Assembly: GCA_964488475.1 (NCBI GenBank)
Contig: CAZAUK010000003.1
Coordinates: 46,592 to 110,591 of the forward strand
Length of the DNA: 64,000 nucleotides
DNA from: an uncultured bacterium
GTDB lineage: Bacteria > Krumholzibacteriota > Krumholzibacteriia > Krumholzibacteriales > WJIX01
Direction: 5' to 3'
In this document: positions 4,859-45,532 of the stretch, in pieces
Layout: each line of letters starts with the position of its first letter
Numbering within the stretch: position 1 is the first letter of the stretch
Made by a program: the position numbers and the translations under genes
The notes under the pieces: generated by a model
Told to the model about the DNA's origin: nothing
Database searches by the model: none
Seen by the model: the letters and a program-made list of their open reading frames with translations, nothing else

Positions 4859-4955
4859 CATTTCCGGCTATAGCTTCGATGACGGTAATTCATCGTTGCC
4901 GTACCGGTCTTCCGGCGGTATACTGGTACAGATCCGTAAATCCGAGGTCTTTTGT

Positions 4956-6294: not shown

Positions 6295-7860
6295 ATGAGA
6301 TTCCGAGGCATAAGAACCTTTTTGATATCGATCATTCCGGTCCTGCTGGTTCCGGCCTGCTCCGGCGAAGGCCCTCCTCCCTTTTTAAGAATGGCTATGG
6401 AGACCGAACCATCCACCCTGGATCCGGTCGCGGCAGTTGACTATTCTTCCGGAATGATAACATCACTGATCCATTCCAACCTGGTGAGGATAGATTCGAA
6501 TGGCCGAATCACCCCGGACGCCGCGGAAAGCTGGAAGCTCTCGAATGACGGCCTGACTTACCGGTTTAATCTTGGAGTTTCACGCTTTTCCAACGGCAGA
6601 AGGTTAGTGGCGGATGATGTTCTATATTCCTTCAGGCGTCTTATTTCACCCGGTTCGCTTTCTTCCAGATGGTGGGTGCTGGAACCCCTGAAAGGAGCGG
6701 CTTCTTTTAATTCGGGCGGACAGTGGAATCCTGAGGCCGTGGAAGTGGTTGATGATTCGACGGTTATAATCGGTCTTGAAAAGCCCGCCGCGCACTTTCT
6801 AAGTCTCCTTTCCATGCCGTCGGCGGGGATAGTATGCCGCGAAGAGGTGGAAAAACAGGATAGAGCTTACGGAAGGCAGCCCTGCGGCAGCGGACCCTGG
6901 ATGCTGGGAAGATGGACCCGCGGGGAGAGCATATTTCTTCAGCCCAATCCGTATTTCTCCGGTGAGGAGCCTGAGATAGAAGGAATATCGATCAGATTCT
7001 TGCCGGTAGCTATGACCAGGATCGCCGAATTCGAGGTGGGAAACCTGGATATACTGGATATACCCGAAGCCGAGCTGAACAGATGGCGCAGCGGCGCAGC
7101 GGTACTCAAAGAGACTGAAGAACTGAGGGCAGTGTATATCGGCCTTAATGTAGAAAGAAAACCCTTTGATGATCCACTGGTAAGAAGGGCGCTGAACCTG
7201 GCGGTCGACGTGGAGGCGATAATAGCCCGGGTACTGTTCGGCGCGGCCTTAAAGGCTAAAGGTGTCATGCCTCCGGGTCTCAGAGAGGGGGCGGCTGCCC
7301 CGAATCCCTACGGGTACGATCCGGAAGAAGCCAGAAAACTTCTATTGAGGGCTGGGCTGGAAGGGGGATTCTCCATGGAAATCTGGCAGAGAGAGAGCCC
7401 GGAAGGAGGAAGGATACTTCAGAGTGTCCAGGCCTACCTGGGGGAGGTGGGAATAGAGGCCAGGCTGGTCACCAGGGACTGGAGCGCTTTCAAGGAGGCT
7501 GTTAACCACCGAACGCCTGACGCTTTCTACCTGGACTGGTTCGCCGATTATCCCGATCCGGAGAATTTCATAGCCCCCCTGTTTCATTCATCCAACACCG
7601 GAGGTGGTGGAAACAGGACGGGATATTCGAATAGAAGGGTCGATTCGCTGGTGGAGGCGGCTTCCACGCTTACCGGCGAGGAAAGGCTGGAGCTTCTGCT
7701 CCAGGCCGAGAGAATAATCTATAGAGACGCCCCCTGGATATTTCTGTGGTTTCCAAAGAGGTACGAAGCGGTATCCGGCAGGTTGAAGGGTTATGAAATC
7801 CCGCTGATATTCAACGGGCAGCGCTATCTTGACGTTCACTTCCAGAAGGATAGATTATAA
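6295..7860 (+). CDS. ABC transporter substrate-binding protein, family 5 (peptide/nickel, DppA/OppA-like)
   Basis: A 521 aa protein with a lipoprotein-type signal (LVPACSG) and SBP_bac_5-like motifs. It is followed by DppB and DppC-like permeases. Confidence 0.8.
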   Translation: MRFRGIRTFLISIIPVLLVPACSGEGPPPFLRMAMETEPSTLDPVAAVDYSSGMITSLIHSNLVRIDSNGRITPDAAESWKLSNDGLTYRFNLGVSRFSNGRRLVADDVLYSFRRLISPGSLSSRWWVLEPLKGAASFNSGGQWNPEAVEVVDDSTVIIGLEKPAAHFLSLLSMPSAGIVCREEVEKQDRAYGRQPCGSGPWMLGRWTRGESIFLQPNPYFSGEEPEIEGISIRFLPVAMTRIAEFEVGNLDILDIPEAELNRWRSGAAVLKETEELRAVYIGLNVERKPFDDPLVRRALNLAVDVEAIIARVLFGAALKAKGVMPPGLREGAAAPNPYGYDPEEARKLLLRAGLEGGFSMEIWQRESPEGGRILQSVQAYLGEVGIEARLVTRDWSAFKEAVNHRTPDAFYLDWFADYPDPENFIAPLFHSSNTGGGGNRTGYSNRRVDSLVEAASTLTGEERLELLLQAERIIYRDAPWIFLWFPKRYEAVSGRLKGYEIPLIFNGQRYLDVHFQKDRL

Positions 7861-8799
7861 ATGCTGCGGTTTGTCAGAAAAAGGCTGCTACAGCTCTTTC
7901 CGATACTTCTGGGGGTTGTTACCGTCACTTTCCTGATAATGTACGTAGTGCCCGGCGATCCGGTCCTTTCACTGGTCGGAGAGAGGTACGATGAAGATAC
8001 CATAAACCGGTTGAGAAGGGAACTGGGCCTGGATAAGCCGCTTTACCTTCAGTATCTGGATTACCTGGCCCGTGTTCTGAAACTTGATTTCGGCAGGTCT
8101 TTCGTCTCCGGCCGGCCGGTGCTCGATTCGATAAAGGAGTATTTTCCCAGAACCCTGCTACTTGCTTTCACCTCCATGGCGATAGCGACCGTGTTCGGCC
8201 TGGCCATTGGTGCCGTATCGTCTCTGGAACGGTTCAGGAGGCTGGGCCGTTTCCTGATGACTTTTTCTTTGGTGGGGGTGTCTATACCGGTATTCTGGCT
8301 GGGTCTTATCCTGATATACCTCTTTTCCATAAAGCTGTCCGTTCTGCCTCCTTCCGGGTACGGAAACGGTTCCCTGAGATATCTGGCGCTTCCCGCGGTA
8401 ACTCTTTCCTTCGCTTCGATGGCTACGGTGGCGAGGGTCTCACGCTCGAGTTTTCTGGAGATCGCTTCAGAGGATTTTGCCAGGACCGCCAGGGCCAAGG
8501 GCCTGAATGAAATGGTGGTTTACGGGAAGCATCTTTTCAGGAACGCGCTCATTCCGGTGGTGACCATAGTGGGAACTGATTTTGGAAGTTATCTCAGCGG
8601 CTCCGTGCTTACCGAATCCATTTTCGGCTGGCCGGGGCTGGGGCGACACATAGTGCAGGCGATACTGAAGAGGGATTTTCCGGTCATTCAGGGGGCGGTG
8701 CTTTTTATGGCGGTCCTTTTTGTAGCTGTAAACCTGATAGTTGACATAAGTTACGTATTAATTGACCCGAGAGTCAGAATAGACGAAAAAAAGGGGTGA
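7861..8799 (+). CDS. ABC transporter permease, DppB/OppB-like
   Basis: A 312 aa protein with six transmembrane helices and the BPD_transp_1 EAA-like loop (ASEDFARTARAKGLNEMVVYGKHLFRNALIPVVT). Confidence 0.85.
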   Translation: MLRFVRKRLLQLFPILLGVVTVTFLIMYVVPGDPVLSLVGERYDEDTINRLRRELGLDKPLYLQYLDYLARVLKLDFGRSFVSGRPVLDSIKEYFPRTLLLAFTSMAIATVFGLAIGAVSSLERFRRLGRFLMTFSLVGVSIPVFWLGLILIYLFSIKLSVLPPSGYGNGSLRYLALPAVTLSFASMATVARVSRSSFLEIASEDFARTARAKGLNEMVVYGKHLFRNALIPVVTIVGTDFGSYLSGSVLTESIFGWPGLGRHIVQAILKRDFPVIQGAVLFMAVLFVAVNLIVDISYVLIDPRVRIDEKKG

Positions 8800-8860: not shown

Positions 8861-9697
8861 GTGTCCCTGTTTATCCTGGTAATTATAGTCGCGGGCGCTC
8901 TGGCCGCCGACCTGATAGCGCCCGCTTCGCGCCAGATGATAGACCTTGATAATTCCCTGAAGGCTCCGTCACTTTCCCATCCTTTCGGGACCGATTCTTT
9001 TGGAAGGGATCTCTTCACCAGGGTGGTGAGGGGATCCAGAATCTCCCTTTCCGTGGGATTTGTGGCCAGGACGATATCCCTTTTGATCGGAATGATTCTT
9101 GGGGTGATATCGGGATTTTACGGGGGAAGGGTCGATTCTGTGATTATGAGGCTCGCCGATATAACGTTCGCGTTTCCCACCCTGCTTCTTCTGGTGGCTA
9201 TCATGGCCGTGGTGACTCCTGGAATGATGACCCTTTTCACTGTCCTGGGGGTGGTCGGCTGGGCCGCGGTCGCCAGGCTGGTGAGGGCCCAGGTCCTGGC
9301 CGTAAGAGAGAGGGAATACGTGCAGGCGGCAAGGTCTTCAGGGACGGGAACCCTTTCACTGATCATGCGCCACATTCTGCCCCAGTGCGTTTCACCGGTG
9401 ATAGTGGTTTACACCATGGGCCTTGGTATGACTATAATGGCGGAGGCGAGTCTCAGTTTTCTGGGTTTGGGGGTCCAACCACCGGTTCCCAGCTGGGGAA
9501 GGATGATATCAGACGGTATAATCTTCATGAGGACCGCCTGGTGGCTTACCATATTCCCCGGATTCATACTGACCTTGACAGTATGTTCGCTGAACCTTGT
9601 GGGAGACGGACTCAGGGACGCGCTTGACCCCAGAAGCGCCGGCCCTAAGCGCAGCCGAAGCCGCGGCGGCGTGAGAGTGATCAGAGATGAGTTTTGA
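8861..9697 (+). CDS. ABC transporter permease, DppC/OppC-like; the true start is probably upstream and non-canonical
   Basis: The frame is open from 8783 and encodes a conserved DppC-type N-terminus (ITRGFFRNRTAAVSLFILVIIVAGALAADLIAP) before the first in-frame GTG at 8861. No ATG/GTG/TTG occurs between 8783 and 8861. The permease EAA loop is present. Confidence 0.75.
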   Translation: MSLFILVIIVAGALAADLIAPASRQMIDLDNSLKAPSLSHPFGTDSFGRDLFTRVVRGSRISLSVGFVARTISLLIGMILGVISGFYGGRVDSVIMRLADITFAFPTLLLLVAIMAVVTPGMMTLFTVLGVVGWAAVARLVRAQVLAVREREYVQAARSSGTGTLSLIMRHILPQCVSPVIVVYTMGLGMTIMAEASLSFLGLGVQPPVPSWGRMISDGIIFMRTAWWLTIFPGFILTLTVCSLNLVGDGLRDALDPRSAGPKRSRSRGGVRVIRDEF

Positions 9698-10760
9698 AAA
9701 AGGCATTCGGGATATAGGACTTGTTATAAACCAAGTGGTATCACGGTGCAATTACGCCAACCGCTTCGGATATTATTCGGTTGCTCCCGGCGAGGACGAT
9801 ACCATAGAGATTCAGGTGTGCGGAAAGAATATATGGCTCGAGTTGATCAAGGAATTCGGTCCATCCGTTGGGAATAAACCGCGATCCGGGTCAAGGGTCG
9901 AATTCCGTTTTTCCGGAATCGATATCGGAATGGAATGGCTGCGGGGCCAAGAGGATGCTCTTTTTATGATCAATGACAGCTTGGCCGATGTAAGGAGTGA
10001 ACCATGCGGGAAGGCCGAACTGGTGACTCAGGCTATTCTCGGTGATGAGGCGAGAGTATTCACCGAGAACAGCGGGTGGTCCCTGGTCCGGTTAGACGAC
10101 GGATATACCGGCTGGGTGGAGTCGGGAAATCTGAGCGGAATATCAAGACGGGACGCAGAGGAATGGAAGATAGAGGTCAATGCCATGATAGCAGAGCAGA
10201 TATCGAAATTCTATAATCTACCTGATACGGAGAGCGGCCCTTCCGGGGAATTGTTGGCGGGAACTCTTGTGCGAGTCGTAAATGCCGGAGAACGCTTTTC
10301 GAAGATAGCGCTGCCCGGCGGGGAGCATTTTTTTGTACAGAATGAAGATTTGGAGGGGATTCCTTCCGGCAGGCCGGATTCGGCGGGACTGGTTGGAAGG
10401 GGAAGGTGTTTCATCGGAATCCCCTATCTTTGGGGTGGTACCACCCCCAGGGGATTCGACTGCTCGGGGCTGGTCAAAAGGCTCTACCAGATGGAGGGCA
10501 TACAGCTACCAAGAGACAGCGACCTGCAGGCTGAGGCGGGAGAGCAGATCAGTCTGGAAGAAGCCCTGGGCAGCGGCGGTACGCTTCTGTTCTTCAGCGA
10601 GGGGGGAGAGAGGATCGATCACGTTGCGGTATCCACCGGCGAGGAGGGTTTTATTCACTCCAGCGGCAGGGTCCGCCCGGGTAGTATGAGCTCGAAGGCG
10701 GAGAGTTACGACCGTAAGCTTGCTGATTCCTTCTGCAGGGCGGTGAAGATCCTGGAGTAG
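9687..10760 (+). CDS. NlpC/P60 cell-wall endopeptidase with N-terminal SH3b domains (YkfC-like gamma-D-Glu-diamino acid endopeptidase)
   Basis: The C-terminal segment GIPYLWGGTTPRGFDCSGLVKRLY...IDHVAVSTG...IHSS gives a Cys-His-His catalytic arrangement, and SH3_3-like repeats lie upstream. It follows a dpp-like importer. Confidence 0.75.
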   Translation: MSFEKGIRDIGLVINQVVSRCNYANRFGYYSVAPGEDDTIEIQVCGKNIWLELIKEFGPSVGNKPRSGSRVEFRFSGIDIGMEWLRGQEDALFMINDSLADVRSEPCGKAELVTQAILGDEARVFTENSGWSLVRLDDGYTGWVESGNLSGISRRDAEEWKIEVNAMIAEQISKFYNLPDTESGPSGELLAGTLVRVVNAGERFSKIALPGGEHFFVQNEDLEGIPSGRPDSAGLVGRGRCFIGIPYLWGGTTPRGFDCSGLVKRLYQMEGIQLPRDSDLQAEAGEQISLEEALGSGGTLLFFSEGGERIDHVAVSTGEEGFIHSSGRVRPGSMSSKAESYDRKLADSFCRAVKILE

Positions 10761-28146: not shown

Positions 28147-28231
28147 TGCCGAGGTGGTGGAACTGGTAGACACGCCACTTTGAGGGGGTGGTGAGCGAAA
28201 CGCTTGTGCGGGTTCGAGTCCCGCCCTCGGC
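28147..28231 (+). tRNA. tRNA-Leu, anticodon GAG
   Basis: GCCGAGG...CCTCGGC acceptor stem, anticodon stem CCACT/GGTGG with loop TTGAGGG (anticodon GAG, G37), a long variable arm, GGTTCGAGTCC T-arm and discriminator A. CCA is not encoded. Confidence 0.85.
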
Positions 28232-28239
28232 ATATTATT

Positions 28240-31609: not shown

Positions 31610-33361
31610 TCATTCGAAATATATGTCTTTTATGAAGGAAATGGGCAGGGCCGGGTGAGAATTGATGATCTCTAAAGTCTTTTTGCTTCTTAGCTCGAGG
31701 TCTTTTGATTTACGCAAATTGTCGCTGATGTCATCTGTTATAAGTCTGGACAGGCCTGGATAGGCAACGGCCGGTGAGATCAGAGCCGAATGCACGTTTT
31801 CGATAGCCTCTTCCTTTCTCAGGCCCGCTGTGCTCATAAAGAAGCCGGCGGCCGATTCGACTGAATAATTTCCTCCATGAAGCCTGAAGACCGCCACCAT
31901 TCTGGCCAGGTCCAGAATGGCTTCGTCTATGGAGCGAAGACGGATATTCAGGCTACCCGGATTGTGGCTGAGCCTTTGGCTTAAAATCTCTGACAGGCAG
32001 CTGTATACATGGGTTTCCCCGCAGAATATTACCCTTAAAGTATCGGAGAGGGGAAAAGACCGGAAGCATTCTTCCTTCATCAAGAGAGCTTTGATGATCT
32101 GGTACTGCAGAAGGGAAAGCTCTTCGGCGGGGTGTCCGTCAGAATCCCCTTCAGCTCTTTCTCTTCTCCTCCAATGGGCTGTATTCACGTTTATAAAACC
32201 CCTGTTCTTGTCTCCGCTGTCAAGAAGAGAGGGCGTCCATTGGGCTATTCTTCTTCCGCCGCAGGGAAAGGAAAGGAAGCTGTTTTCGCGAAAGCTGTCG
32301 AAACAGCCCGGATTCCGGCTCAAAATAATATCCGGATGGCTTCGCATCGGCCCCTGGCGAACGGAACCGGTTTTTATACGATTCAATATATTTTCTGCTA
32401 TTTCGGCTGACTCGCCTATAAGATCAAAACTGGAATCTGCTCTATTATTCCCGGAATCCTTCGAGCCGGTCGATCCTTCCATGCTTTTATTGATGGTCCT
32501 TCTGCTTACCAGAAGCTTTCTTATCTTCTTGTCAGCTTCTTGAAGGATGTTATTCGGATTTTCCATCAGATGCTCGTCGTATTCGAATATCTTGGCGAGG
32601 TTTTCCGATCCGAGGATTATCCTTCCATGGGAACGTTTGGACAGGTCGTACCTTATGTAGTTTCGAAAGCCGCTGATTATTTCCACTACCGGATCCAGCC
32701 AGGCGGTGTCGCTACTGTAGCGCCCTTGAACCAGGTTCTTTAGTTCTCCGGTTGATTCCAGAAGCCGGTCCAGCATTTCCAGAGAGAGCCTGATGTGCAG
32801 TTGAGACGGTTTCCGGCACAGGATTTTGGCGTTTTCCATCAGAACCGGCAGTTTTCCGACTCTCGCTCTGTAATCTTCAAGCTCATTATCCCCCGGCGGG
32901 TATCCCCTGGAGGGAATCCCCCAGAGGGCTTCGTTGATCATCCAGCAGTAAAGCATGGGGTTTATTTCGTGGAGCCGAAGATCAGCCAGCCCGAACCTTT
33001 GGCCTCTCAGCCAGCCCAGAACCAGCTGGGAGTCGTAAATATCCTTTTGCCCCAGTCCTTCCGTTGTCAGCACCGAGGTTCTTTCAAGGAGCCTGTCCAA
33101 CCTTCTGAGCCCCGCTTCTATTTCTCCTTCGGAATATGTGAACAGGGATGAATCAGCTTTCAGTAAGCCTATTCTGGAGCATCGCAGCGGGTGCAGGAAG
33201 TTATATAATTCGATCGCATCGGTTTTGACCCTCCTGTATTCTGCCAGGTTTTCGGGGGTCCCGGATTCCTTTGAGCAACCCCAGGCGAGAAAGACCGGCA
33301 GGAATAGCGAAACCCAGAGAGGCAAGATATTTTGAATTGTCTTCGAAAAGCGTTTTATCAT
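31610..33361 (-). CDS. Hypothetical lipoprotein, 583 aa
   Basis: The long ORF has a signal peptide and a lipobox-like LAWGC. Antisense ORFs on the + strand are short. No family was recognised with confidence. Confidence 0.5.
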   Translation of the reverse strand: MIKRFSKTIQNILPLWVSLFLPVFLAWGCSKESGTPENLAEYRRVKTDAIELYNFLHPLRCSRIGLLKADSSLFTYSEGEIEAGLRRLDRLLERTSVLTTEGLGQKDIYDSQLVLGWLRGQRFGLADLRLHEINPMLYCWMINEALWGIPSRGYPPGDNELEDYRARVGKLPVLMENAKILCRKPSQLHIRLSLEMLDRLLESTGELKNLVQGRYSSDTAWLDPVVEIISGFRNYIRYDLSKRSHGRIILGSENLAKIFEYDEHLMENPNNILQEADKKIRKLLVSRRTINKSMEGSTGSKDSGNNRADSSFDLIGESAEIAENILNRIKTGSVRQGPMRSHPDIILSRNPGCFDSFRENSFLSFPCGGRRIAQWTPSLLDSGDKNRGFINVNTAHWRRRERAEGDSDGHPAEELSLLQYQIIKALLMKEECFRSFPLSDTLRVIFCGETHVYSCLSEILSQRLSHNPGSLNIRLRSIDEAILDLARMVAVFRLHGGNYSVESAAGFFMSTAGLRKEEAIENVHSALISPAVAYPGLSRLITDDISDNLRKSKDLELRSKKTLEIINSHPALPISFIKDIYFE

Positions 33362-35988: not shown

Positions 35989-36004
35989 TGACAGGGCTGG
36001 CACG
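35989..36004 (+). promoter_or_regulatory. Sigma54-like -24/-12 promoter element
   Basis: TGGCACG-ctag-aTGCT matches the consensus TGGCACG-N4-TTGCW at 10 of 11 positions. It lies about 60 nt upstream of the ATG at 36063. Confidence 0.4.
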
Positions 36005-36062
36005 CTAGATGCTTAAATAATAACGGGATAGTATTGGAAGAAGCAAAAAAACGGAGTTCATT

Positions 36063-37748
36063 ATGAAGTGCTGTAACCGTCTGCCGGTTATACTCTTAGC
36101 CTTTTGCGTCCTGATTTCGGCCTGTTCGAGTGAGGAGAAAGCTCATACGGACAGGGACGGTACAGAACCGCTATTCGAGCAGCCAGGGCCCAGCGGAACG
36201 CTCATAATCGGCCTTCAACAGGAGCCCGATATTCTGAACGAAGCGATAAGCAGCATGGTTTCAGGCATATACGTATGCAATCTGATCTTCAGCAAATTCG
36301 TAAAACACAATGACAGGATGGAACTGGTACCGGATCTTATTACCGAAGTCCCCACATTGGAAAATGGAAGGATTGCCCCGGATTATCTGACCTACAGGTA
36401 CAGCATCAGGAAAGACGCCCTATGGCATGACGGGACTCCGGTGACCAGCGCTGATGTCAAATTTACCGCCGAACTTATGTTGAATCCCGATATAAATGTC
36501 GGCACCAGGCAGGGCTGGAATGTAATAGATACGGTTGAGACTCCGGATTCTCATACAGTTGTTTTTCACCTCAAAGAGGTGTACGCCAATTTTACAGGGG
36601 ACTGTTTCTACGATGAATCGGTTCTTCCCCGCCATCTCCTGAAGGATGACGCGGGTAAAGGTTTCATCGGGGCGGATTTTCACAAGCACCCGGTGGGAAG
36701 TGGTCCTTTCATGTTCTCCGGCTGGAAGGCCGGTTCCCATATCGAGCTTGAATCGAACGCAGATTACTACGGGGAGGGTCCTTACCTGGAAAGAATAATC
36801 ATCAGGTTTATCCTGGAAGGAAATTCACTGGTTATGCAGCTGGAGAGCGGTGAAATAATGGGAGCCGATAACATTCCCGGCAATATGCTTGACATCGTGT
36901 CCTCAATCGGGGGAATGAGAATATATAAGACGCCGGCTCTATTTCTGGAGCATCTGGATGTAAACTGCCGGAGAAGCCCCTTGGATGATTCCCGACTCAG
37001 GCGGGCCATCTCCATGGCGATAGACCGCAAGGAAATATCAGAGAAGATATATAACGGGATCTGGATTCCGGCTTACAGTGACGAGCATCCCGATTCTCCA
37101 TACCACACCGGAGCGGGCCTGAAATATAATGCTCATGATCCCCGCCGGGCTGGGGCGATACTTTCAAAGGCGGGGTGGAGGGACCTGGATGGCGATGGTA
37201 TCAGGGAAAAGGAGGGGAAGAGACTGGCGCTCGAGATATCCACAACCACCGGCAGGGCCAACAGGGAGAGAACCCAGTCAGTCCTGGCGCAGCAACTCAG
37301 GGATATAGGAATAGATCTTAGGATAAAGAATTATCATCCCGGGATAATGTTCGCAAGTTACGATGACAGAGGGATTCTCAGCGGAGGGAATTACGACCTG
37401 GCCCTTTACGCGTTCATGGCTCCACCAGATCCTTCAACCAAAGAGACCAGCTATTCGGGTGAATTTATACCGCCTTTAGGCCAGAACTATTCCTACTTCG
37501 ATAACGATACTCTCACATCCCTTCTTTCCAGGGGCAGCTCCGCCGTTTCCCCCCTCGAGAGAAAAGAACTGTACGCTGAAATAATGGAGATACTGGCCAG
37601 GGAACTTCCAGTCATTCCGCTTCTGTGGATAACCCAGATCGACGCCATGCCCGTGTCGCTTAAGAATTACAGGCCCAATCCCACCCAGTCGGGCGATACC
37701 TGGAACGCGAACATGTGGCGTCTTGATAAGGGCTCACCAGGAAGGTGA
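36063..37748 (+). CDS. ABC transporter substrate-binding lipoprotein, family 5 (peptide/nickel type)
   Basis: Lipoprotein signal (LISACSS) and SBP_bac_5 architecture, 561 aa. Confidence 0.8.
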   Translation: MKCCNRLPVILLAFCVLISACSSEEKAHTDRDGTEPLFEQPGPSGTLIIGLQQEPDILNEAISSMVSGIYVCNLIFSKFVKHNDRMELVPDLITEVPTLENGRIAPDYLTYRYSIRKDALWHDGTPVTSADVKFTAELMLNPDINVGTRQGWNVIDTVETPDSHTVVFHLKEVYANFTGDCFYDESVLPRHLLKDDAGKGFIGADFHKHPVGSGPFMFSGWKAGSHIELESNADYYGEGPYLERIIIRFILEGNSLVMQLESGEIMGADNIPGNMLDIVSSIGGMRIYKTPALFLEHLDVNCRRSPLDDSRLRRAISMAIDRKEISEKIYNGIWIPAYSDEHPDSPYHTGAGLKYNAHDPRRAGAILSKAGWRDLDGDGIREKEGKRLALEISTTTGRANRERTQSVLAQQLRDIGIDLRIKNYHPGIMFASYDDRGILSGGNYDLALYAFMAPPDPSTKETSYSGEFIPPLGQNYSYFDNDTLTSLLSRGSSAVSPLERKELYAEIMEILARELPVIPLLWITQIDAMPVSLKNYRPNPTQSGDTWNANMWRLDKGSPGR

Positions 37749-39259
37749 TATTTATGCGCGGGCGATTCAGGATATGCATGATAGCGCTTGCGGCAATAAC
37801 CGCTTTGGCCGCCCTCCGGCTGCTGAAAGATTTTACGGGCGGCGCCGGTTACCCCGCTGTTCAGTTCTGCGGGGGGGCCCGTGAGGTCGGGGGGTCATGT
37901 TATCTGGTGGAGACAGGAGAGACCAGGTTTATAGTCGATTGCGGGATCTTTGGTGAAGCGGGGAAAGATATCCTTCCTCCGGAGCCGGAGAAACTGGATT
38001 TCGCGGTTTTGACTCACGCGCACAGTGACCACTGCGGCCTGTTGCCGGAGCTGTTCGCGGCCGGGTTCAATGGTACTGTGTACTGCACCGAACCCACCGC
38101 GAAACTCGCTTCTGTGATGCTTTCCATGGCCCGGAGTTTCAAGAGAGACAGGGTGGCCAGGGATGATTACACTCGGGCCCTGGCCGGATTCCAGGGTGTG
38201 GAATTCAATGAGCCGGTCTCGGTGGATGATGTAAGATTCGAGTTTTCCAGGACGGAACACCTTCTGGGCGCCGCTTTCGTCGAAATATTCATTCGGCGGG
38301 AGGGTGGTGATAACCTGAAACTGGTCTTTTCGGGGGATCTGGGTGACGGCAATTCGGTTCTTCTTCGTTCCCTATCTGAATGCGGGCACGCTGACTTCGT
38401 TGTGATGGAGTCGACTTATGGAGGAACCGGGAGGGGAACCCCCCATGAGGATCCGGTCCGCCGCCACGCTCCTTTCGCCCGAGCGGTCGCCCAAGCGCTT
38501 CGAAGAGGGGGAGACGTACTTATACCGGCGTTCACCCTGGGAAGGACCCAGGAGGTGATAGCGGTTATCGATTATTATCAGGAAAAGGGCGTGATCCCAG
38601 AAGGCGCTCTGGTATACACTGACAGCCCCACCGCTGAAAAGATAACCTCGATATACCGGGAGTTTGAGGAAGAGCTTTCCAGCCGGGCTCGCAACTTTTA
38701 CAGGGGAACGGTCCTAAAAAGATCAACCCTCAGGGAAGTCAAGAGCAGGTCTTCCTTGAAAGTACACGATAGAAAGCACAGGCCTTCCATATTTATTTCA
38801 TCAAGCGGCGATCTTAATCACGCTAATTCGCCGAGACACCTTATGAAGATGTTTGGCAACGAGTTAAATCTTCTCTGCATCGTTGGTTGGCAGGCTCCCG
38901 GGTCAGTCGGCAGAAGGCTTTCTGAAGGCGCCGAAGCCGTCCGAGTGAGGTACAGAAGGGGAAGAAAAATGATCAACGAATGGATATCCCCATCCATCGA
39001 GGTCAGGACATTCGATTCCTTCTCGGGGCACGCGGACAGCGTGACACTGCTTGAATGGGTAAGCGGAATAGAGGGAACCCGGAGTATCTTCCTGGTACAC
39101 GGAGAAATCGATCAGGCGGAGGCGCTGAAAAAATCGATAAGGGAGAACCTGGGAATCGAAACCCGAATACCGCAGAGGGGCGAAAGAATCGTTCTGAATA
39201 TGAGCCGTATGAAAAATGAAGCGTTCCCGCGGATTAAAGCAGGAGAGCCGATTCGATGA
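37745..39259 (+). CDS. Beta-CASP-family metallo-beta-lactamase-fold nuclease with an N-terminal signal anchor
   Basis: HAHSDHCG (HxHxDH) and D/H motifs with a beta-CASP-like C-terminal region (RNase J / CPSF-like fold). The N-terminus MRGRFRICMIALAAITALAALRLL is a hydrophobic anchor. The GTG start overlaps the TGA stop of the binding-protein gene. Confidence 0.7.
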   Translation: MIFMRGRFRICMIALAAITALAALRLLKDFTGGAGYPAVQFCGGAREVGGSCYLVETGETRFIVDCGIFGEAGKDILPPEPEKLDFAVLTHAHSDHCGLLPELFAAGFNGTVYCTEPTAKLASVMLSMARSFKRDRVARDDYTRALAGFQGVEFNEPVSVDDVRFEFSRTEHLLGAAFVEIFIRREGGDNLKLVFSGDLGDGNSVLLRSLSECGHADFVVMESTYGGTGRGTPHEDPVRRHAPFARAVAQALRRGGDVLIPAFTLGRTQEVIAVIDYYQEKGVIPEGALVYTDSPTAEKITSIYREFEEELSSRARNFYRGTVLKRSTLREVKSRSSLKVHDRKHRPSIFISSSGDLNHANSPRHLMKMFGNELNLLCIVGWQAPGSVGRRLSEGAEAVRVRYRRGRKMINEWISPSIEVRTFDSFSGHADSVTLLEWVSGIEGTRSIFLVHGEIDQAEALKKSIRENLGIETRIPQRGERIVLNMSRMKNEAFPRIKAGEPIR

Positions 39260-40245
39260 GAAGATATCTGGCAATAAGATTGGCGAGAGCCGTCCCGATG
39301 GTGATTCTGATATCAGTTTTGACCTTTTTCCTGCTGCATCTGGCCCCGGGCGGGCCGGTGGGAGTTTTTTCAAGGAGTCCTCGAATGACTCAGCAGGATG
39401 TTTTCAGAATAAAGGAGAAATACGGCTTGGACCAGCCCCTTCCCGCTCAGTACCTGAAATGGTTCAAAACGACTTTTATCAAGCTTGATTTTGGACGCAG
39501 TTATATAACCGGCCGGCCGGTCTCGGAGATGATACTGGAACGATTACCGGCCACGCTCGAGCTTATGGGTACGGCCTTTCTTATAGCTATACTGCTGAGT
39601 CTTTTGATAGGTGTGCTGTCCGCTCTCAACAGGGGCGGTTTCTTCGATCAGCTATTTTCCATAGTATCGGTGGCGGGGATGTCTGTTCCGGTTTTCTGGT
39701 TTGGATTGATGGCCATACTGGTTTTCTCGGTAAAACTGGGAATCGCTCCCGGCGGTGGCAGAGAGACGTTGTCGGAGACCTCATCCCTGGCCGGCCGGCT
39801 GGGCCATCTGGTCCTGCCCTCCTGTGTATTGGCGGTGGCCTATCTGTCCACCTGGAGCCAGTACATCAGATCGGGCCTTATTGAGGCGGTGGACCAGGAT
39901 TTTATCAGGACGGCAAGGGCAAAGGGGCTCGCCGAGAAGTCGGTCATACTCAAACACGCGCTCAGAAGCGCGATCCTTCCTTTCGTGGCGGCTGTTTCCA
40001 TGCAGGTTTCAACCCTCTTTACAGGCGCGGTCATTACCGAGACCGTATTCTCATGGCCGGGAATGGGAACCATGTTTTACCAGGGAATACTCAGGCAGGA
40101 CTATACCAGGATCCTGGGAATAGTCGTGGTCGCCTCTCTCTGTATCATCCTTTTCAACGCCATAGGGGATATAGCCTGTTATATACTCGATCCCAGAGGC
40201 CGGGAAAGTCTGGAAAAAGGTTTCAGGGAAAGGGAACCGGTCTGA
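39256..40245 (+). CDS. ABC transporter permease, DppB/OppB-like
   Basis: Six transmembrane helices and the EAA loop (VDQDFIRTARAKGLAEKSVILKHALRSAILP). Confidence 0.85.
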   Translation: MRRYLAIRLARAVPMVILISVLTFFLLHLAPGGPVGVFSRSPRMTQQDVFRIKEKYGLDQPLPAQYLKWFKTTFIKLDFGRSYITGRPVSEMILERLPATLELMGTAFLIAILLSLLIGVLSALNRGGFFDQLFSIVSVAGMSVPVFWFGLMAILVFSVKLGIAPGGGRETLSETSSLAGRLGHLVLPSCVLAVAYLSTWSQYIRSGLIEAVDQDFIRTARAKGLAEKSVILKHALRSAILPFVAAVSMQVSTLFTGAVITETVFSWPGMGTMFYQGILRQDYTRILGIVVVASLCIILFNAIGDIACYILDPRGRESLEKGFREREPV

Positions 40246-41165
40246 TGATTACAGATACCGGACGCATAAAATACAAAAAGAATGGTATGGACTGGCGGAT
40301 CGATCCGGCCAGGGTTCCGGTCAAGGGCCCCAGGAGCGGGTTCTTGAGCCGGTTCATGTCAGACCGGGTGGCATTGATAGCTATAGCCTACATTGTTCTT
40401 ATCACGGTCGTCTCTTCTTTCGCGCCGGTCTTTACTCCCTACGGAAGGGATGAGATAGATTTAGAGAATATAGCCGCCCCCAGTTCCGCCACGCACGTTC
40501 TGGGGACCGACTACTTGGGAAGGGATCTGTTCACCCGCCTGATTTACGGCGCGAGGTATTCTCTATTTGTTGCCGTGGTCGCCGTGGCGGTAGCGACAGT
40601 GATCGGAGTGCTGCTGGGAACGGCGGCGGGCTATTTTGCGGGATGGGTCGACCGTGTGGTCACCGCCCTGGTTGATCTTCACCTTTCAATTCCACTTTTT
40701 CTCGTTCTCCTGGTCGCCTGTTCGGTTCTGGAAGGGGGTGTCCGGATTATTCCGCTGGTAATAGGAATGGTGTCGTGGATGGAAACCGCCAGGGTGTCCA
40801 GGGCCAGGATCCAGTCGATAAGGGAAGCCGTTTTCGTGCAGGCTTCTTTTACCATGGGGGAGAACAGCTTTCAGGTGGTCCTCAAGCATATCCTTCCATA
40901 CGCGGCGGCTCCCATCGCCGTTTCGGCGGCCATCGGTTTCGCCAACGCTATGCTGATAGAAAGCGCCCTGAGTTTTCTGGGGTACGGGGTGCCCCCACCC
41001 ATTCCCACCTGGGGAAATATGCTTGATAACGCCAGAACCGTCATGAGATCTTCCCCTATGGCGGCTTTTGCACCCGGATTCCTGATATTCATTACCTGCC
41101 TCTGTTTTAATCTTGTGGGAAGAAGTCTGAAAAACTCCCTTTCCTATACTCACCACAAAACTTAA
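40245..41165 (+). CDS. ABC transporter permease, DppC/OppC-like
   Basis: The ATG at 40245 overlaps the upstream TGA (ATGA). The protein begins MITDTGRIKYKK...; the longer ORF from 40053 overlaps the previous gene. A BPD_transp_1 EAA-like loop is present. Confidence 0.8.
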   Translation: MITDTGRIKYKKNGMDWRIDPARVPVKGPRSGFLSRFMSDRVALIAIAYIVLITVVSSFAPVFTPYGRDEIDLENIAAPSSATHVLGTDYLGRDLFTRLIYGARYSLFVAVVAVAVATVIGVLLGTAAGYFAGWVDRVVTALVDLHLSIPLFLVLLVACSVLEGGVRIIPLVIGMVSWMETARVSRARIQSIREAVFVQASFTMGENSFQVVLKHILPYAAAPIAVSAAIGFANAMLIESALSFLGYGVPPPIPTWGNMLDNARTVMRSSPMAAFAPGFLIFITCLCFNLVGRSLKNSLSYTHHKT

Positions 41166-41230
41166 ATTGATTACTGGAACCAAGGCTGTTTTTAGAAGGC
41201 ATTTTCAGACAGGCAGGTGACGGGCTGGCT

Positions 41231-42265
41231 ATGAGTAAGATAAAAGCGGTGGGATTCGTTTCGGGAGGCCTGGACAGTATCGTGTCCGTGGAGCTTATGA
41301 AAAGGCAGGATATCGATATCGTCGCCTATCATATTATAAACGGTTTCGGGCAGAGCACTCTTCGGATGAGAGCGGATGTTGATATTGACGAAAGCGGATG
41401 GTTAGCTGAAGAGCAAAAGAGGTTGAAGGAGATTCTGGGAGTGGAGGTCCATATCATAGACATGTCCGAGGAGTTTATAGAGATCGTCAAATCCCCCCGG
41501 TACGGGTATGGCAGGAACATGAACCCATGTATAGACTGCAAGATAGCTTTTTTCAGGAAGGGTTACGAGTTGATCAGAAGAGAGCAAGCAGACTTTGTAT
41601 TCACCGGGGAGGTCCTGGGTCAGAGGCCAATGTCGCAGAACAGGAGGATGATGGATCTCATAGAGAAGAAAAGCCTTCTGGGCGGCCTGATTCTAAGGCC
41701 GCTGAGCGCCAAGCTTTTGCCGGAGACTATTCCGGAGCGGAAGGGATGGGTGGACAGGAACAAGCTAATGGATATTCAGGGAAGATCCAGAAAGAGACAG
41801 ATAGCCCTGGCCGCTGAGTTTGGGGTCAAAGAATATCCAAACCCGGCGGGTGGCTGTATCCTTACCGACGAAAATTACAGCGCCAGGCTGAAGGATCTTC
41901 TGGAGGTTGAAGGGGGAAGCGGGTTTTCGATTAAGGAAGCGGTACTCCTTTCCGTGGGAAGGCATTTCAGGTTTTCTTCCTCACTTAAGATAGTGGTGGG
42001 CAGGAACGAGTCCGAAAACGACTATCTCGAGGAAGTATGGAAGGATAGCTGGCTGGTCAGAATGAAGGAGTTCGCCGGCCCTACCGTTCTGCTGCGAGGA
42101 GTTGCGGAGAGGGACGATCTGGAGAGGGCGGGCGCTATTGCGGCCAGATACAGCAAGGCGAGGGACCTTGAAAAGGTCGATGTCATTGCCGGTCGGCCGG
42201 ATTCCAATATCGAGATGACCGTAAATCCCGCCCTGGGGAAAAACCTCGAGGACAAACTGGTTTAG
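41231..42265 (+). CDS. PP-loop superfamily ATP pyrophosphatase, ThiI/TtcA-like tRNA-thiolation-type enzyme; exact function unassigned
   Basis: SGGLDS PP-loop motif near the N-terminus and a CxxC pair (NPCIDCK). 344 aa. Confidence 0.55.
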   Translation: MSKIKAVGFVSGGLDSIVSVELMKRQDIDIVAYHIINGFGQSTLRMRADVDIDESGWLAEEQKRLKEILGVEVHIIDMSEEFIEIVKSPRYGYGRNMNPCIDCKIAFFRKGYELIRREQADFVFTGEVLGQRPMSQNRRMMDLIEKKSLLGGLILRPLSAKLLPETIPERKGWVDRNKLMDIQGRSRKRQIALAAEFGVKEYPNPAGGCILTDENYSARLKDLLEVEGGSGFSIKEAVLLSVGRHFRFSSSLKIVVGRNESENDYLEEVWKDSWLVRMKEFAGPTVLLRGVAERDDLERAGAIAARYSKARDLEKVDVIAGRPDSNIEMTVNPALGKNLEDKLV

Positions 42266-42789
42266 GGCAGGATGCTCCTCTTCTCTATCGATCTGGCTAT
42301 CAATTCCCTGTGGCTTTCAAAAGCCAGTTCGGGAAGCTCGGACAGGTGGAAGAAGTCAGCTTCCCTGGCGTCGTCCCGGGCCTCGGGCTCACCCTTATAT
42401 TCCATGAAATTGTAGCCTATGATCAGCAGGGAGGTATTGTAGAAATCACTCTCCTGGTAGATTATGTCCACCAGCTCGGATCGAGAGACCACCAGGCCGG
42501 TTTCTTCCAGCAGCTCCCTGCGTGCGGCCTGTTCCGGACTTTCCCCGGTCTCCACGAAACCTCCCGGCAGTCCCCACTTGTTTTCGCCAGGTTGTCTTCC
42601 CCTGAGGACCAGTAGTATTCTGTCTTCCCCGTCGAAAATAAGGCCGGTGGCAGCGGGGATGGGATTCTGGTAAACGAATATTTCCTCAGACGGGCAGTAG
42701 AGCCTGCTGCGCCCTTCGCTTCGCTTCAGGACAAGCTTTTTCCCGCAGAAAGGGCAGTATTTTCTGTTATCTTCCAACTTTTCCACCAA
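42262..42789 (-). CDS. NUDIX hydrolase with an N-terminal zinc ribbon (NudC-like)
   Basis: CPFCGKKL...C zinc ribbon followed by the Nudix box GLPGGFVETGESPEQAARRELLEETGL. Confidence 0.85.
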   Translation of the reverse strand: MVEKLEDNRKYCPFCGKKLVLKRSEGRSRLYCPSEEIFVYQNPIPAATGLIFDGEDRILLVLRGRQPGENKWGLPGGFVETGESPEQAARRELLEETGLVVSRSELVDIIYQESDFYNTSLLIIGYNFMEYKGEPEARDDAREADFFHLSELPELAFESHRELIARSIEKRSILP

Positions 42790-42930
42790 GCCTTTCTATT
42801 TTTCAAAGATAATCCAACCGGTCACCGGCAGGCAAGCTCTTTAAACAAAATCCGCTCAAAGCTTGATTTTGCCTGACAATCATGTATAAGTTAATATCAT
42901 AACCACCTTATGGTGAAAGGAGTTCAAGAG

Positions 42931-44589
42931 ATGAACGCTCTTGCCGTCGCTCTGATCACTCTGGCCGGATATATTATAGCCTATCGATTTTACGCCCGGT
43001 ATTTCAGCGGAAGAGTACTCTCTCTTCAGCCTGAGAGGAAGACTCCAGCCCATGAGTTCGAGGACGGGGTTGATTTCGTTCCGACCCGGCCGATTATTCT
43101 GTTCGGCCATCATTTCGCTTCAATAGCAGGATTGGGCCCGATTCTGGGGCCGGCGATAGCGGTGATATGGGGATGGCTTCCCGCAGTGATCTGGATCTTC
43201 TTCGGATCTATATTCATAGGTGCGATCCATGATCTGTCGGCCCTGTTCATCTCGATGCGGAACAGGGGGCGGTCCATAGGGGATGTCACCAGGGGTTTGG
43301 TGGGACGCAGGGCTCATATACTTTTTCTGGTTCTCATATTTTTCACATTGTCTCTTTGCATGGGGACTTTCGTCAGAGTAATAGCGAGCCTCTTTTCCGA
43401 TAACATGCATCCTGAATCGGTGATTCCGGTGGCGGCTCTCATTATACTGGCGGTCATGGTCGGGTTCCTGGTTTACAGGAGAGGATATAGCCTCGCCGCG
43501 CTCACCGTAGTCGCGCTGATCCTGATGTTCCTTTCGATATGGTTTGGCCTGAGCAATCCCGTGTCGCAAATCAGTTCTAACTGGTGGGTATACCTGCTTA
43601 TGGGCTACGCTTTCATAGCTTCCGTCCTGCCGGTATGGCTTCTACTTCAACCCCGGGATTACCTTAACGCCTACCAGCTGGTAATAGGGATGGTGCTTAT
43701 GTACGCGGGCCTTCTGGTATTCAGGCCTGAGATTTCCGCTCCGGCGGTAAACAGTTCGGCCCAGGGGCTGCCCCCACTCTTTCCATTCCTCTTCATCACG
43801 GTCGCCTGCGGCGCGATTTCGGGCTTTCACAGCCTGGTGGCTACCGGAACGACCTCGAAACAGATAGACAGGGAGAATCACGCAACGCCGATCGGATACG
43901 GTGGCATGCTGGCAGAAGGCCTGCTGGCCATGGTGGTAGTCCTGGCCTGCACTTCCGGTATCAGCAGAGGGGAATGGTTTTCACACTATTCTTCATGGCA
44001 GGAGGCTTCCGGATTAGCGGACAAGATGGAGGCTTTTGTCTCAGGGGCGGGAATGTTCGTTTCCAAGACAGGTGTTCCCATAAAGATAGCCGGAAGCTTC
44101 ATCGTGGTGATGGCGGTCGGGTTCGCGATGACCACCCTGGATTCGGGAACCAGGCTTCTGAGGTACAACCTTCAGGAACTGGGGGAAGGCTTGAATATCC
44201 GGCTCCTCAGGAACAGGTTCGTATCGTCTCTCGCGGCGATAATCGGAATAGGTTACTTCAGCCTTATGACAGTGGACGGCAAACCGGTGGGCCTGGCGCT
44301 GTGGGAATTGTTCGGAACCACAAACCAGGTTCTGGCTTCTCTGGGCCTACTGACAGTTTCACTGTATCTCTACAGGAAAGGAAAACCGATTTTCTACACC
44401 GTTATTCCTATGATTGCCATGCTGATAATGACGGGTACCGCGATGATAACCCGCCTGGTCAATAATTTCTCAGCCGGCCACTGGGCGCTTTTCGTTGTGG
44501 GGGGGATAATTATCGTTCTGGTATTCTGGCTGCTGGTGGAATCGGTGATAGCTTTCAGGAAGCACACGATGACAGATGGCAAATCCTGA
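42931..44589 (+). CDS. cstA: Carbon starvation protein CstA (peptide/pyruvate transporter family)
   Basis: A roughly 550 aa polytopic membrane protein with the CstA-like N-terminus (ALAVALITLAGYIIAYRFYARYF). AAAGGAG lies 9 nt upstream of the ATG at 42931. Confidence 0.85.
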   Translation: MNALAVALITLAGYIIAYRFYARYFSGRVLSLQPERKTPAHEFEDGVDFVPTRPIILFGHHFASIAGLGPILGPAIAVIWGWLPAVIWIFFGSIFIGAIHDLSALFISMRNRGRSIGDVTRGLVGRRAHILFLVLIFFTLSLCMGTFVRVIASLFSDNMHPESVIPVAALIILAVMVGFLVYRRGYSLAALTVVALILMFLSIWFGLSNPVSQISSNWWVYLLMGYAFIASVLPVWLLLQPRDYLNAYQLVIGMVLMYAGLLVFRPEISAPAVNSSAQGLPPLFPFLFITVACGAISGFHSLVATGTTSKQIDRENHATPIGYGGMLAEGLLAMVVVLACTSGISRGEWFSHYSSWQEASGLADKMEAFVSGAGMFVSKTGVPIKIAGSFIVVMAVGFAMTTLDSGTRLLRYNLQELGEGLNIRLLRNRFVSSLAAIIGIGYFSLMTVDGKPVGLALWELFGTTNQVLASLGLLTVSLYLYRKGKPIFYTVIPMIAMLIMTGTAMITRLVNNFSAGHWALFVVGGIIIVLVFWLLVESVIAFRKHTMTDGKS

Positions 44590-45532
44590 CAAGAGAGGAT
44601 CCTTGAAGAATTCTTCCAGTTTCGACGCCGTCGCCGTTGGCTACTCCGCTATCGATTTTCTGGGCGTTGTGCCTCATTATCCGGTTGAGAATCTCAAACT
44701 GGAGCTGGAGGAGTTCGAGATTCAGGGAGGAGGGCCGGCTGCCACCGCTATGGCGACAGTTTCCAGGCTGGGACTCAGAGCCGCATACATGGGTGTGATG
44801 GGGGACGATATATTCGGGGTAAGGGCTCTGAGAGAGCTGACCAGCGAAAATGTCGATACTTCATCGGTGGTCATAAAAAAGGGCGGAAAATCTCAATTCG
44901 CCTTCATAATGGTGAACAAAAAGACCGGGAAGAGGACTATCCTGTGGTCGCGAGGCGATCTTCCCAATATGAAGGGAGAGTGGATAAACCCTAAGATGAT
45001 AAGTTCCTCCAAAGCGCTTTTGATCGACACTCTGGAGCCTGTGGCCGCTCTGCGAGCCGCCCGAATCGCCCGCGAATCCGGCGTGCCGGTTTTAATAGAC
45101 GCGGGTACTTTGAGAGACGGGGTGGAAGAACTCCTGCCCCTCTGCGATTACATAGTGGCAAGCGAAGTCTTCGCTTCGCAGATATCGGATTCTGAAAGTG
45201 CTGACAGGGCTCTCGATATACTTTTCTCTTACGGGCCCAGGGAGGCGGTCGTAACTCTGGGGGAAAGAGGGTGCGCGGCGGTGGACCGGGACGGCAGCCT
45301 CCGGTTCGAAGGATTCGAGGTTGAGTCAGTTGACACGACCGGTGCCGGGGATGTATTTCACGGAGCTTATCTCTACGCGGTCCTGCAGGGTTGGGATATC
45401 ACCAGAAAGTGTGTTTTTTCAAACGCTGTCGCCGCTCTGAAATGCGGAAAGCTGGGGGGGAGGGCAGGGATTCCAAATATAGGCGAAGTCCATAAATTTC
45501 TTAGGCGAAGGCGGCGGGAACTGCACTTCTGA
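44576..45532 (+). CDS. PfkB-family carbohydrate kinase (ribokinase-like)
   Basis: N-terminal GG dipeptide region and the C-terminal DTTGAGDVFHGAY anion hole. The start overlaps the end of cstA. Confidence 0.85.
   Translation: MANPDKRGSLKNSSSFDAVAVGYSAIDFLGVVPHYPVENLKLELEEFEIQGGGPAATAMATVSRLGLRAAYMGVMGDDIFGVRALRELTSENVDTSSVVIKKGGKSQFAFIMVNKKTGKRTILWSRGDLPNMKGEWINPKMISSSKALLIDTLEPVAALRAARIARESGVPVLIDAGTLRDGVEELLPLCDYIVASEVFASQISDSESADRALDILFSYGPREAVVTLGERGCAAVDRDGSLRFEGFEVESVDTTGAGDVFHGAYLYAVLQGWDITRKCVFSNAVAALKCGKLGGRAGIPNIGEVHKFLRRRRRELHF

Follow-up and report, generated by a model that had tools for sequence, protein, structure and literature searches.

A predicted membrane-tethered beta-CASP nuclease encoded within a conserved PepT-type importer operon of Krumholzibacteriota

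The gene cluster and its layout

The DNA analyzed here, called the window in the following, is a stretch of 64,000 nucleotides (nt) of contig CAZAUK010000003.1 (assembly GCA_964488475.1) from an uncultured bacterium of the Krumholzibacteriota. Downstream of the cytochrome c assembly genes ResB and CcsA it carries five co-directional genes (36063-42265), which encode a family-5 substrate-binding protein (SBP), a metallo-beta-lactamase (MBL)-fold hydrolase of the beta-CASP type, two permeases resembling DppB and DppC, and a PP-loop ATPase (Table 1). A first-pass annotation, made from the sequence alone, had listed the genes in this order, and the open reading frames (ORFs) together with their Pfam domains support it. 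The gene of main interest is that of the beta-CASP protein, which is placed between the genes for the binding protein and the permeases of a PepT-type ATP-binding cassette (ABC) importer, and the product of which is predicted to carry an N-terminal export or anchor signal.

The junctions between the genes had to be revised in part. The beta-CASP protein had been taken to comprise 504 amino acids (aa) starting from GTG 37745, but a Shine-Dalgarno sequence (GGAAGGTGA) precedes the ATG at 37754, and the N-terminus encoded from this ATG, MRGRFR, parallels the MRKRFR of a homologue that is 78% identical. Because the Shine-Dalgarno sequence and the homologous N-terminus agree, the gene most likely begins at ATG 37754, and the predicted protein is thus shortened to 501 aa. 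It follows that the SBP stop codon and the beta-CASP gene are separated by a 5-nt spacer and do not overlap within GTGA. At the next two junctions the overlaps of 1-4 nt that had been ascribed to the whole cluster do exist, as the beta-CASP stop and the DppB start share the sequence ATGA, and the DppB stop and the DppC start overlap by 1 nt within TGATG. However, a gap of 65 nt lies between the DppC gene and the PP-loop gene, and therefore the description of all junctions as overlapping was wrong. For the DppC-like gene, a start at 40053, which would yield the longest ORF, was replaced by ATG 40245 in accordance with the gene call of the source contig.

Table 1. Features of the importer operon and its immediate surroundings (window coordinates)
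Feature	Position	Strand	Details
Family-5 (Opp/Dpp/Nik-type) substrate-binding lipoprotein (SBP)	36063..37748	+	561 aa; Pfam SBP_bac_5 E 3e-78, 264 bits
Beta-CASP metallo-beta-lactamase-fold hydrolase, predicted to be signal-anchored	37754..39259	+	501 aa from ATG 37754; alternative GTG 37745
Predicted N-terminal export/anchor signal of the beta-CASP protein	37754..37825	+	MRGRFR n-region, ICMIALAAITALAAL hydrophobic (nt 37772-37816), then RLLKD and Gly-rich linker
DppB/OppB/NikB-like permease	39256..40245	+	329 aa; Pfam BPD_transp_1_N and BPD_transp_1
DppC/OppC/NikC-like permease	40245..41165	+	306 aa; Pfam OppC_N and BPD_transp_1; source-contig gene call
ThiI-like PP-loop ATPase fused to NFACT-R_2/DUF814	41231..42265	+	Pfam tRNA_Me_trans/ThiI and NFACT-R_2; also NCBIfam
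NUDIX hydrolase gene, convergent	42262..42789	-	Pfam NUDIX E 2e-22; overlaps the PP-loop stop; closes the transcription unit
Sigma54-type -24/-12 element TGGCACGCTAGATGCT	35998..36013	+	50 nt upstream of the SBP start codon

The beta-CASP protein

The three Pfam domains found in the beta-CASP protein, Lactamase_B, Beta-Casp (E 8e-21; 75 bits, cut-off 27.7) and RMMBL (E 2e-14; 54 bits, cut-off 21.6), are all above the gathering score. Numbered from ATG 37754, the residues of MBL motifs 1-4 (D62; H88-A-H90-S-D92-H93, forming HAHSDH; H169; D195) and of beta-CASP motifs A-C (E219 in VMESTYG, H426 in FSGHAD, H449 in LVHGE) are intact and invariant in 25 homologues. All of these catalytic motifs have aligned counterparts in archaeal aCPSF and in the Thermus RNase TTHA0252, to which, among proteins of solved structure, the sequence is closest (E about 1e-50); the FSGHA segment is aligned to S378/H380 of TTHA0252 (Ser-Gly-His, the motif-B segment). 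In the AlphaFold2 model of the protein (predicted local distance difference test score 86, predicted template-modelling score 0.84), a single N-terminal helix (residues 2-28) is connected to a compact domain by a linker of low confidence, and Foldseek gave template-modelling scores, normalised to the target, of 0.91 against TTHA0252 and of 0.61-0.63 against the longer chains of aCPSF1. No RNase J model of NCBIfam matched the protein at E <= 1e-5; the best NCBIfam models were of the Cas14-MBL and aCPSF1 types, below their cut-offs. The Pfam scores, the invariant residues and the alignment with TTHA0252 thus confirm the initial assignment to the beta-CASP group, including motifs A-C, and the protein is predicted to be a complete CPSF73/TTHA0252-type hydrolase.

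The beta-CASP family of MBL-fold nucleases was reportedly described by Callebaut et al. in 2002, and its members RNase J, CPSF73, Integrator-11, Artemis and aCPSF are regarded as intracellular processors of RNA or DNA. To our knowledge, every characterized beta-CASP enzyme acts inside cells, and all of them cleave RNA or DNA. With TTHA0252 of Thermus thermophilus and with aCPSF1 and aCPSF2 the window protein has in common the domain order, i.e. MBL, beta-CASP insert and RMMBL, as well as motifs that include FSGHA and LVHGE, at about 30% identity (E 5e-50). In contrast to these enzymes, which are cytoplasmic and begin at the MBL core, it starts with a predicted signal or anchor of 35 residues and groups with clades that carry twin-arginine (Tat) or Sec signals, and, unlike aCPSF1, it has no KH domains.

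The N-terminal signal and the location of the enzyme

A start rich in K/R followed by a hydrophobic run (median 17 residues) is present in 117 of the 118 scorable homologues of the beta-CASP protein, which are 51-78% identical to it and several of which are named Krumholzibacteriota. The common layout is that of the hydrophobic run and a subsequent linker rich in Gly, Ser and Asp, about 35-40 residues ahead of the segment GGAREVGGSC. When charges were counted in about 6 residues before the run and in 15 residues after it, the 117 homologues had on average 3.1 K/R and 0.4 D/E on the N side and 2.1 K/R and 1.9 D/E on the C side, and in 102 of them the N side had the more positive net charge. This asymmetry is the pattern of a predicted N-in signal or type II anchor. 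Clear A-X-A sites (ASA or ALA) just ahead of the domain are found in some homologues of this clade and are missing in others. The window protein has ALA-AL within the hydrophobic region with an Arg directly after it, and its RGRFR, which is devoid of an RR pair, does not constitute a twin-arginine motif.

In an exhaustive search of representatives at 50% identity, the whole anchored clade amounted to one full-length representative. Among the next-best full-length matches (31-40% identical), most have either a Sec signal peptide with an AXA site or a twin-arginine motif (SRRDFLQ, TRRDFV, TRRQFV), and a profile of these matches retrieved a large clade of Planctomycetota proteins, including one of the cultured Alienimonas californiensis, nearly all of which have RRxFL starts (a strict pattern counts at least 50 of 117). 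The Tat model TIGR01409 was at or above its curated cut-off in four of the ten tested proteins of this sister clade, and PF10518 was recorded for one further match. Among the contig-profile matches listed were one close relative (L003) and 79 loci at 27-34% identity, most of the latter matches beginning near query residue 36.

In 59 of 60 bootstraps of a neighbour-joining tree of the catalytic core, from which the signals had been removed, the anchored, Sec and Tat proteins together were separated from the cytoplasmic homologues that carry no signal, with the qualification that the method is simple and that the top-scoring cytoplasmic homologues only were sampled. Because the catalytic core groups with the clades that have Tat or Sec signals, an extracytoplasmic location is well supported, and the catalytic domain most likely faces the periplasm. 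The N-terminal segment is likewise supported as a conserved, putative export or anchor signal. The first-pass annotation had proposed a hydrophobic anchor and a periplasm-facing enzyme for this one protein, and the conservation of the segment among the homologues, the charge bias and the signals of the nearest clades all speak for that proposal.

Two further observations concern the relatives. The Planctomycetota beta-CASP proteins with Tat signals have about 500-520 aa and are encoded by stand-alone genes (P0279-P0361; L091 7001-8524, Alienimonas californiensis CP036265.1), and one of them has the UniRef label 'Ribonuclease'. The closest matches outside the anchored clade include a protein of 946 aa (P0128) with a beta-CASP module at 468-922 behind an N-terminal region of ~467 residues.

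Conservation of the operon

The order SBP, beta-CASP, DppB-like permease, DppC-like permease and ThiI+DUF814 protein is unbroken in ten of ten loci, i.e. on the source contig and at nine others, and the junctions are overlapping or short. The nine related loci are 51-60% identical to the window in the beta-CASP protein, 56-70% in the SBP and 45-72% in the permeases. Between CcsA and the SBP gene the gene content varies, yet the core from SBP to DppC stays intact, and downstream of the operon a CstA gene is present at some loci and absent from others. The embedding of the beta-CASP gene between the SBP and permease genes, first noted in the window, is thus conserved and not a one-off.

The variable genes between CcsA and the SBP comprise a nitroreductase gene of 182 aa (L085, L089 and L090) and, on the opposite strand, a gene for an FlgD_ig protein of ~500 aa (L086, L088 and L090), which in one case has a faint match to Por_Secre_tail. 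Further upstream, the minus strand of the window encodes at 31610-33361 a protein of 583 aa that matches DUF885 weakly and starts like a lipoprotein (…AWGCSKE); among the related loci with a flank long enough to cover this position, the gene was seen in eight, divergently upstream of ResB/CcsA, the Pfam match being weak or absent in some of them. In a sister clade, an HxsD-like gene and a pair of radical SAM genes precede the gene of a beta-CASP protein with a Sec signal (P0273; L092 3446-8551) by about 600 nt, with an ORF of 95 aa in between, and these surroundings resemble a His-Xaa-Ser-type peptide-modification cluster.

The importer and its missing ATPase genes

The SBP has the lipobox L-I-S-A-C (…VLISAC|SS). 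Its NCBIfam matches are of the Opp4A/NikA type, those of the permeases are of the Opp2B/Opp4C type and NikB-like, and no equivalog cut-off was reached. In OppA and DppA the Asp of the motif W-x-A-D-Y-x-D-P anchors the peptide amino group; the idea that its absence marks the SBP as a binder of ligands other than peptides was dropped, as the bona fide peptide binder AppA is also devoid of this Asp where the two are aligned. EAA-type loops, read by eye, are present in both permeases (DFIRTARAKGL…AILP in the DppB-like and EAVFVQASFTMG…HILP in the DppC-like protein).

With the family-5 SBP and the OppB/OppC-like permeases with EAA loops, the operon resembles oppABCDF, dppABCDF and the app operon of Bacillus subtilis. 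While canonical Opp, Dpp and Nik operons also carry OppD and OppF genes, here none is present in cis, and the enzyme gene is inserted between the SBP and the permeases. When all six frames were scanned for Walker A and LSGGQ motifs and Pfam was run, no ABC nucleotide-binding gene was found at this operon, at a second dpp-like locus or in the rest of the 64-kb window, with the exception of the one at 232-912. This ABC_tran gene is located upstream of a MacB_PCD/FtsX permease gene (3566-4858) and is thus of the exporter type. At the source-contig copy and the nine related loci, no ORF resembling a nucleotide-binding domain was found within 6-8 kb on each side (7 kb for most), as far as the contigs reach. 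The absence of ATPase genes at both dpp-like loci, as claimed at the outset, is therefore substantiated, and ATPase genes just beyond the cluster in the same operon are excluded by the convergent NUDIX gene that lies there instead. Because the EAA loops have been kept in both permeases, ATPase partners are to be expected, encoded elsewhere.

The second dpp-like locus consists of an SBP5 gene (6295-7860), the SBP of the operon being 24% identical to its product, two permease genes (7861-8799 and 8861-9697) and, with a small overlap, a peptidase gene (9687-10760; NlpC/P60 and SH3 domains). It looks like another importer-plus-enzyme arrangement, possibly for cell-wall peptides. The exporter mentioned above is of the MacB/LolCDE type, and its permease gene is followed by that of a GWxTD-domain protein (4836-6287).

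A conserved sigma54-type element

A sigma54-like -24/-12 element had been noted upstream of the operon. The element itself (TGGCACGCTAGATGCT) is present, but its coordinates are 35998-36013, and not 35989-36004, a difference of 9 nt. It has one mismatch to TGGCAC-N5-TTGCW and is the sole such match in the window, which by itself is at the level of chance (1 match versus 1.13 expected). A match to TGGCAY-N5-NTGC was found 26-143 nt upstream of the SBP gene at nine of nine loci scanned (the window and eight related loci), in intergenic DNA that is otherwise diverged and unalignable; by our own arithmetic, such a match would arise by chance with a probability of roughly 0.002 per locus. This conservation supports a sigma54-type promoter, which would drive the operon. 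The activator motifs GAFTGA and GESGTGKE do not occur in any frame of the 64-kb window, an Rfam scan yielded no riboswitch upstream of the operon, and simple scans for terminators and promoters revealed nothing above the shuffled background. A tRNA-Leu(GAG) gene at 28147-28233 was the only Rfam or ARAGORN match in the window.

The PP-loop gene and other neighbours

The PP-loop gene follows directly downstream of the permease genes in ten of ten loci, and it had been regarded as the last gene of a coupled operon. Its product, which has the GRxRxxQ motif of the family (GRSRKRQ) and a CxxC, belongs to the ThiI+DUF814 family, for which Burroughs and Aravind have predicted a function as tRNA 4-thiouridine synthase that replaces THUMP-ThiI (PMC4075521). 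At least 8000 scored candidate homologues were obtained, all with E <= 1e-10, the best 120 of which are 44-85% identical, and some named homologues are from Patescibacteria and Bathyarchaeia. In view of this wide distribution of a predicted housekeeping tRNA thiolase and of the 65-nt gap, the PP-loop gene was rejected as a part of the module; it is probably a neighbour, possibly transcribed by read-through.

Genes for a CstA-like transporter and a ribokinase-like PfkB kinase at 42910-45532 recur in related loci, and a gene for a small Metallophos phosphoesterase was also found in related loci. A nucleoside or ribose theme in these downstream genes is conceivable, although it may only reflect synteny.

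Discussion

The explanation that we favour, and which we consider somewhat probable, is that of a sigma54-controlled nutrient-scavenging operon specific to Krumholzibacteriota, which combines a beta-CASP nuclease tethered on the periplasmic side with a PepT-type importer that is served by ATPases in trans. The binding lipoprotein and the two permeases would make up those parts of a PepT-family importer that lie outside the cytoplasm and in the membrane, and the beta-CASP metallo-nuclease encoded between them would be attached on the periplasmic side of the inner membrane through its N-terminal signal anchor. The tethered enzyme, which retains the complete two-metal site of TTHA0252, would most likely act on RNA, on single-stranded DNA or on some other polymer with phosphodiester bonds that has entered the periplasm. 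The adjoining importer might take up the small products or, under these same conditions, scavenged peptides. The pair of ATPase subunits required by the EAA loops of the permeases would be supplied by genes elsewhere in the genome. It should be noted that we infer the topology, the nucleic-acid substrate, the hand-off of products to the SBP and the ATPases in trans.

Several observations weigh against this explanation. The K/R count alone is higher on the N side of the hydrophobic run than on the C side in only 73 of the 117 homologues, many members of the clade have K/R (Arg) straight after the run, and 18 of the 117 have more K/R after the run than before it. The SBP most closely resembles binders of peptides and of nickel (AppA, Opp4A, NikA), and its nearest solved structure is the peptide binder AppA of B. 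subtilis (E 1e-54); we know of no family-5 binding protein that binds nucleotides. The ten loci are not fully independent, because they share a wider synteny, with ResB/CcsA upstream and NUDIX and PfkB genes downstream. Finally, the three exported beta-CASP genes of sister clades that were examined (that of Alienimonas, that of a Sec-signal member and another one) are all located outside of importer operons; therefore, the linkage is lineage-specific and could be historical. The similarity to AppA and the sister-clade gene contexts also leave the earlier suggestion that products of the enzyme feed the transporter unsupported, and we regard it as doubtful that the nuclease does so.

The most serious alternative, which we rate as possible though not probable, is that the genes have co-regulation and nothing else in common. 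The importer would take up oligopeptides or a metal chelate, and the exported beta-CASP protein would independently degrade extracellular or periplasmic nucleic acid, and the two would share one sigma54 promoter solely because each is used for scavenging when the same resource is limiting. This would be in line with the resemblance of the SBP to the peptide-binding AppA and of the permeases to Opp and Nik models, with the stand-alone genes for exported beta-CASP proteins in other phyla, and with the conservation of the sigma54-type element. A comparable case is the Ntr regulon of Escherichia coli, which includes the opp, dpp and ddp operons. However, the nuclease gene lies exactly between the SBP and permease genes, near-abutting or overlapping, in ten of ten loci, which is tighter than co-regulation would need, and a membrane tether in place of free secretion suggests an action beside the transporter.

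At the opposite end stands a dedicated pathway for the uptake of nucleic-acid fragments, with the tethered beta-CASP protein acting on RNA or ssDNA as a periplasmic exonuclease at the mouth of the transporter and with the SBP and the Opp permeases importing nucleotides or short oligonucleotides. We judge this specialized form rather unlikely; if it were true, it would be the first PepT-family importer for such fragments and would provide the first physiological role for the superclade of exported beta-CASP proteins in Planctomycetota, Krumholzibacteriota and others.

The operon of Mycoplasma agalactiae in which MAG_5030 (the SBP lipoprotein P80), MAG_5040 (a surface staphylococcal nuclease, SNase) and ABC transporter genes are co-transcribed is conserved in its lineage and has been read, together with mhp379 of M. 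hyopneumoniae, as serving the nuclease-fed import of nucleic-acid precursors (PMC3585158). It is the closest functional analogue of the operon described here, as the genes for a binding lipoprotein, a nuclease and a transporter likewise follow one another. The two differ in that the mycoplasmal nuclease has the staphylococcal SNase fold and not that of a beta-CASP MBL, and in that its transporter is of a sugar type with its own ATPase gene, whereas the importer here is of the PepT type and has no ATPase gene. In addition, mycoplasmas are wall-less monoderms, whereas the present organism is presumably diderm, so that a substrate must first cross the outer membrane.

ComEC carries its beta-lactamase-like domain on the external face of the cytoplasmic membrane. 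This C-terminal MBL-fold nuclease domain, which has no beta-CASP insert and is accompanied by an OB fold for DNA binding, offers a parallel in that nucleic acid is degraded by part of a membrane protein, next to a membrane import machine (PMC12455585). The domain and its channel form one fused protein, whereas the beta-CASP protein of the window is a separate polypeptide encoded in an ABC importer operon.

Two other alternatives are less probable still. It seems quite improbable that the beta-CASP protein is a tethered housekeeping RNase with the orientation N-out/C-in that faces the cytoplasm, and that its position in the importer operon is an accident of the lineage. RNase Y, which is membrane-held in Bacillus, would be a model for such an enzyme, and all characterized beta-CASP enzymes are intracellular; positive residues often follow the hydrophobic run directly, the start at M12 in the database gene call (P0001) would remove the positive n-region, and the ThiI+DUF814 and NUDIX neighbours are RNA-related. 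Yet the flank before the run is strongly positive in nearly all homologues and has a more positive net charge than the flank after it in the large majority of them, the MRGRFR start is backed by the Shine-Dalgarno sequence and by homology, some members have A-X-A sites, and the core groups with the Tat and Sec clades. It is equally hard to credit that the exported hydrolase acts on a substrate other than nucleic acid, such as a phosphodiester-linked or nucleotide-conjugated molecule or polymer, from which it would release the ligand of the SBP: the ligands of family-5 binding proteins are very diverse, AccA-type family-5 systems take up the sugar phosphodiester agrocinopine, an agrocinopine-binding protein is among the PDB matches of the SBP (4ra1, E 7e-16), and tight genetic coupling would suit a ligand-preparing enzyme, but the RMMBL and beta-CASP motifs have been kept, including the Ser-Gly-His aligned to TTHA0252 S378/H380, and the characterized beta-CASP enzymes all cleave RNA or DNA.

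The scavenging operon that we favour is made up of parts of known kinds, as beta-CASP nucleases, PepT importers and operons combining a nuclease with an importer are known; what is apparently new is a superclade of exported beta-CASP proteins. The existence of this wider superclade, the members of which are predicted to have Tat signals, Sec signals or signal anchors, is well supported, and one of its branches is, as far as can be judged from the available sequences, fixed within an importer operon across Krumholzibacteriota. A literature search found no paper on an exported beta-CASP protein, but only work on ComEC and unrelated studies; as the coverage of the literature was incomplete, the term 'undescribed' is provisional. 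In a survey of predicted secreted nucleases, which lists the endonuclease, NUC, SNc and HNHc types, enzymes with the MBL fold go unmentioned (PMC11495043).

If the exported beta-CASP proteins are active outside the cytoplasm, they would constitute a further class of extracellular or periplasmic nucleases, which would matter for the way in which extracellular DNA and RNA are turned over in sediments and sludge. With the operon, enzyme-coupled ABC import can be put to a direct test, and so can the presumed reliance of PepT-type permeases on ATPases encoded elsewhere. For Krumholzibacteriota, a beta-CASP protein that is predicted to face the periplasm and is encoded within an importer operon suggests the scavenging of nutrients from extracellular nucleic acids.

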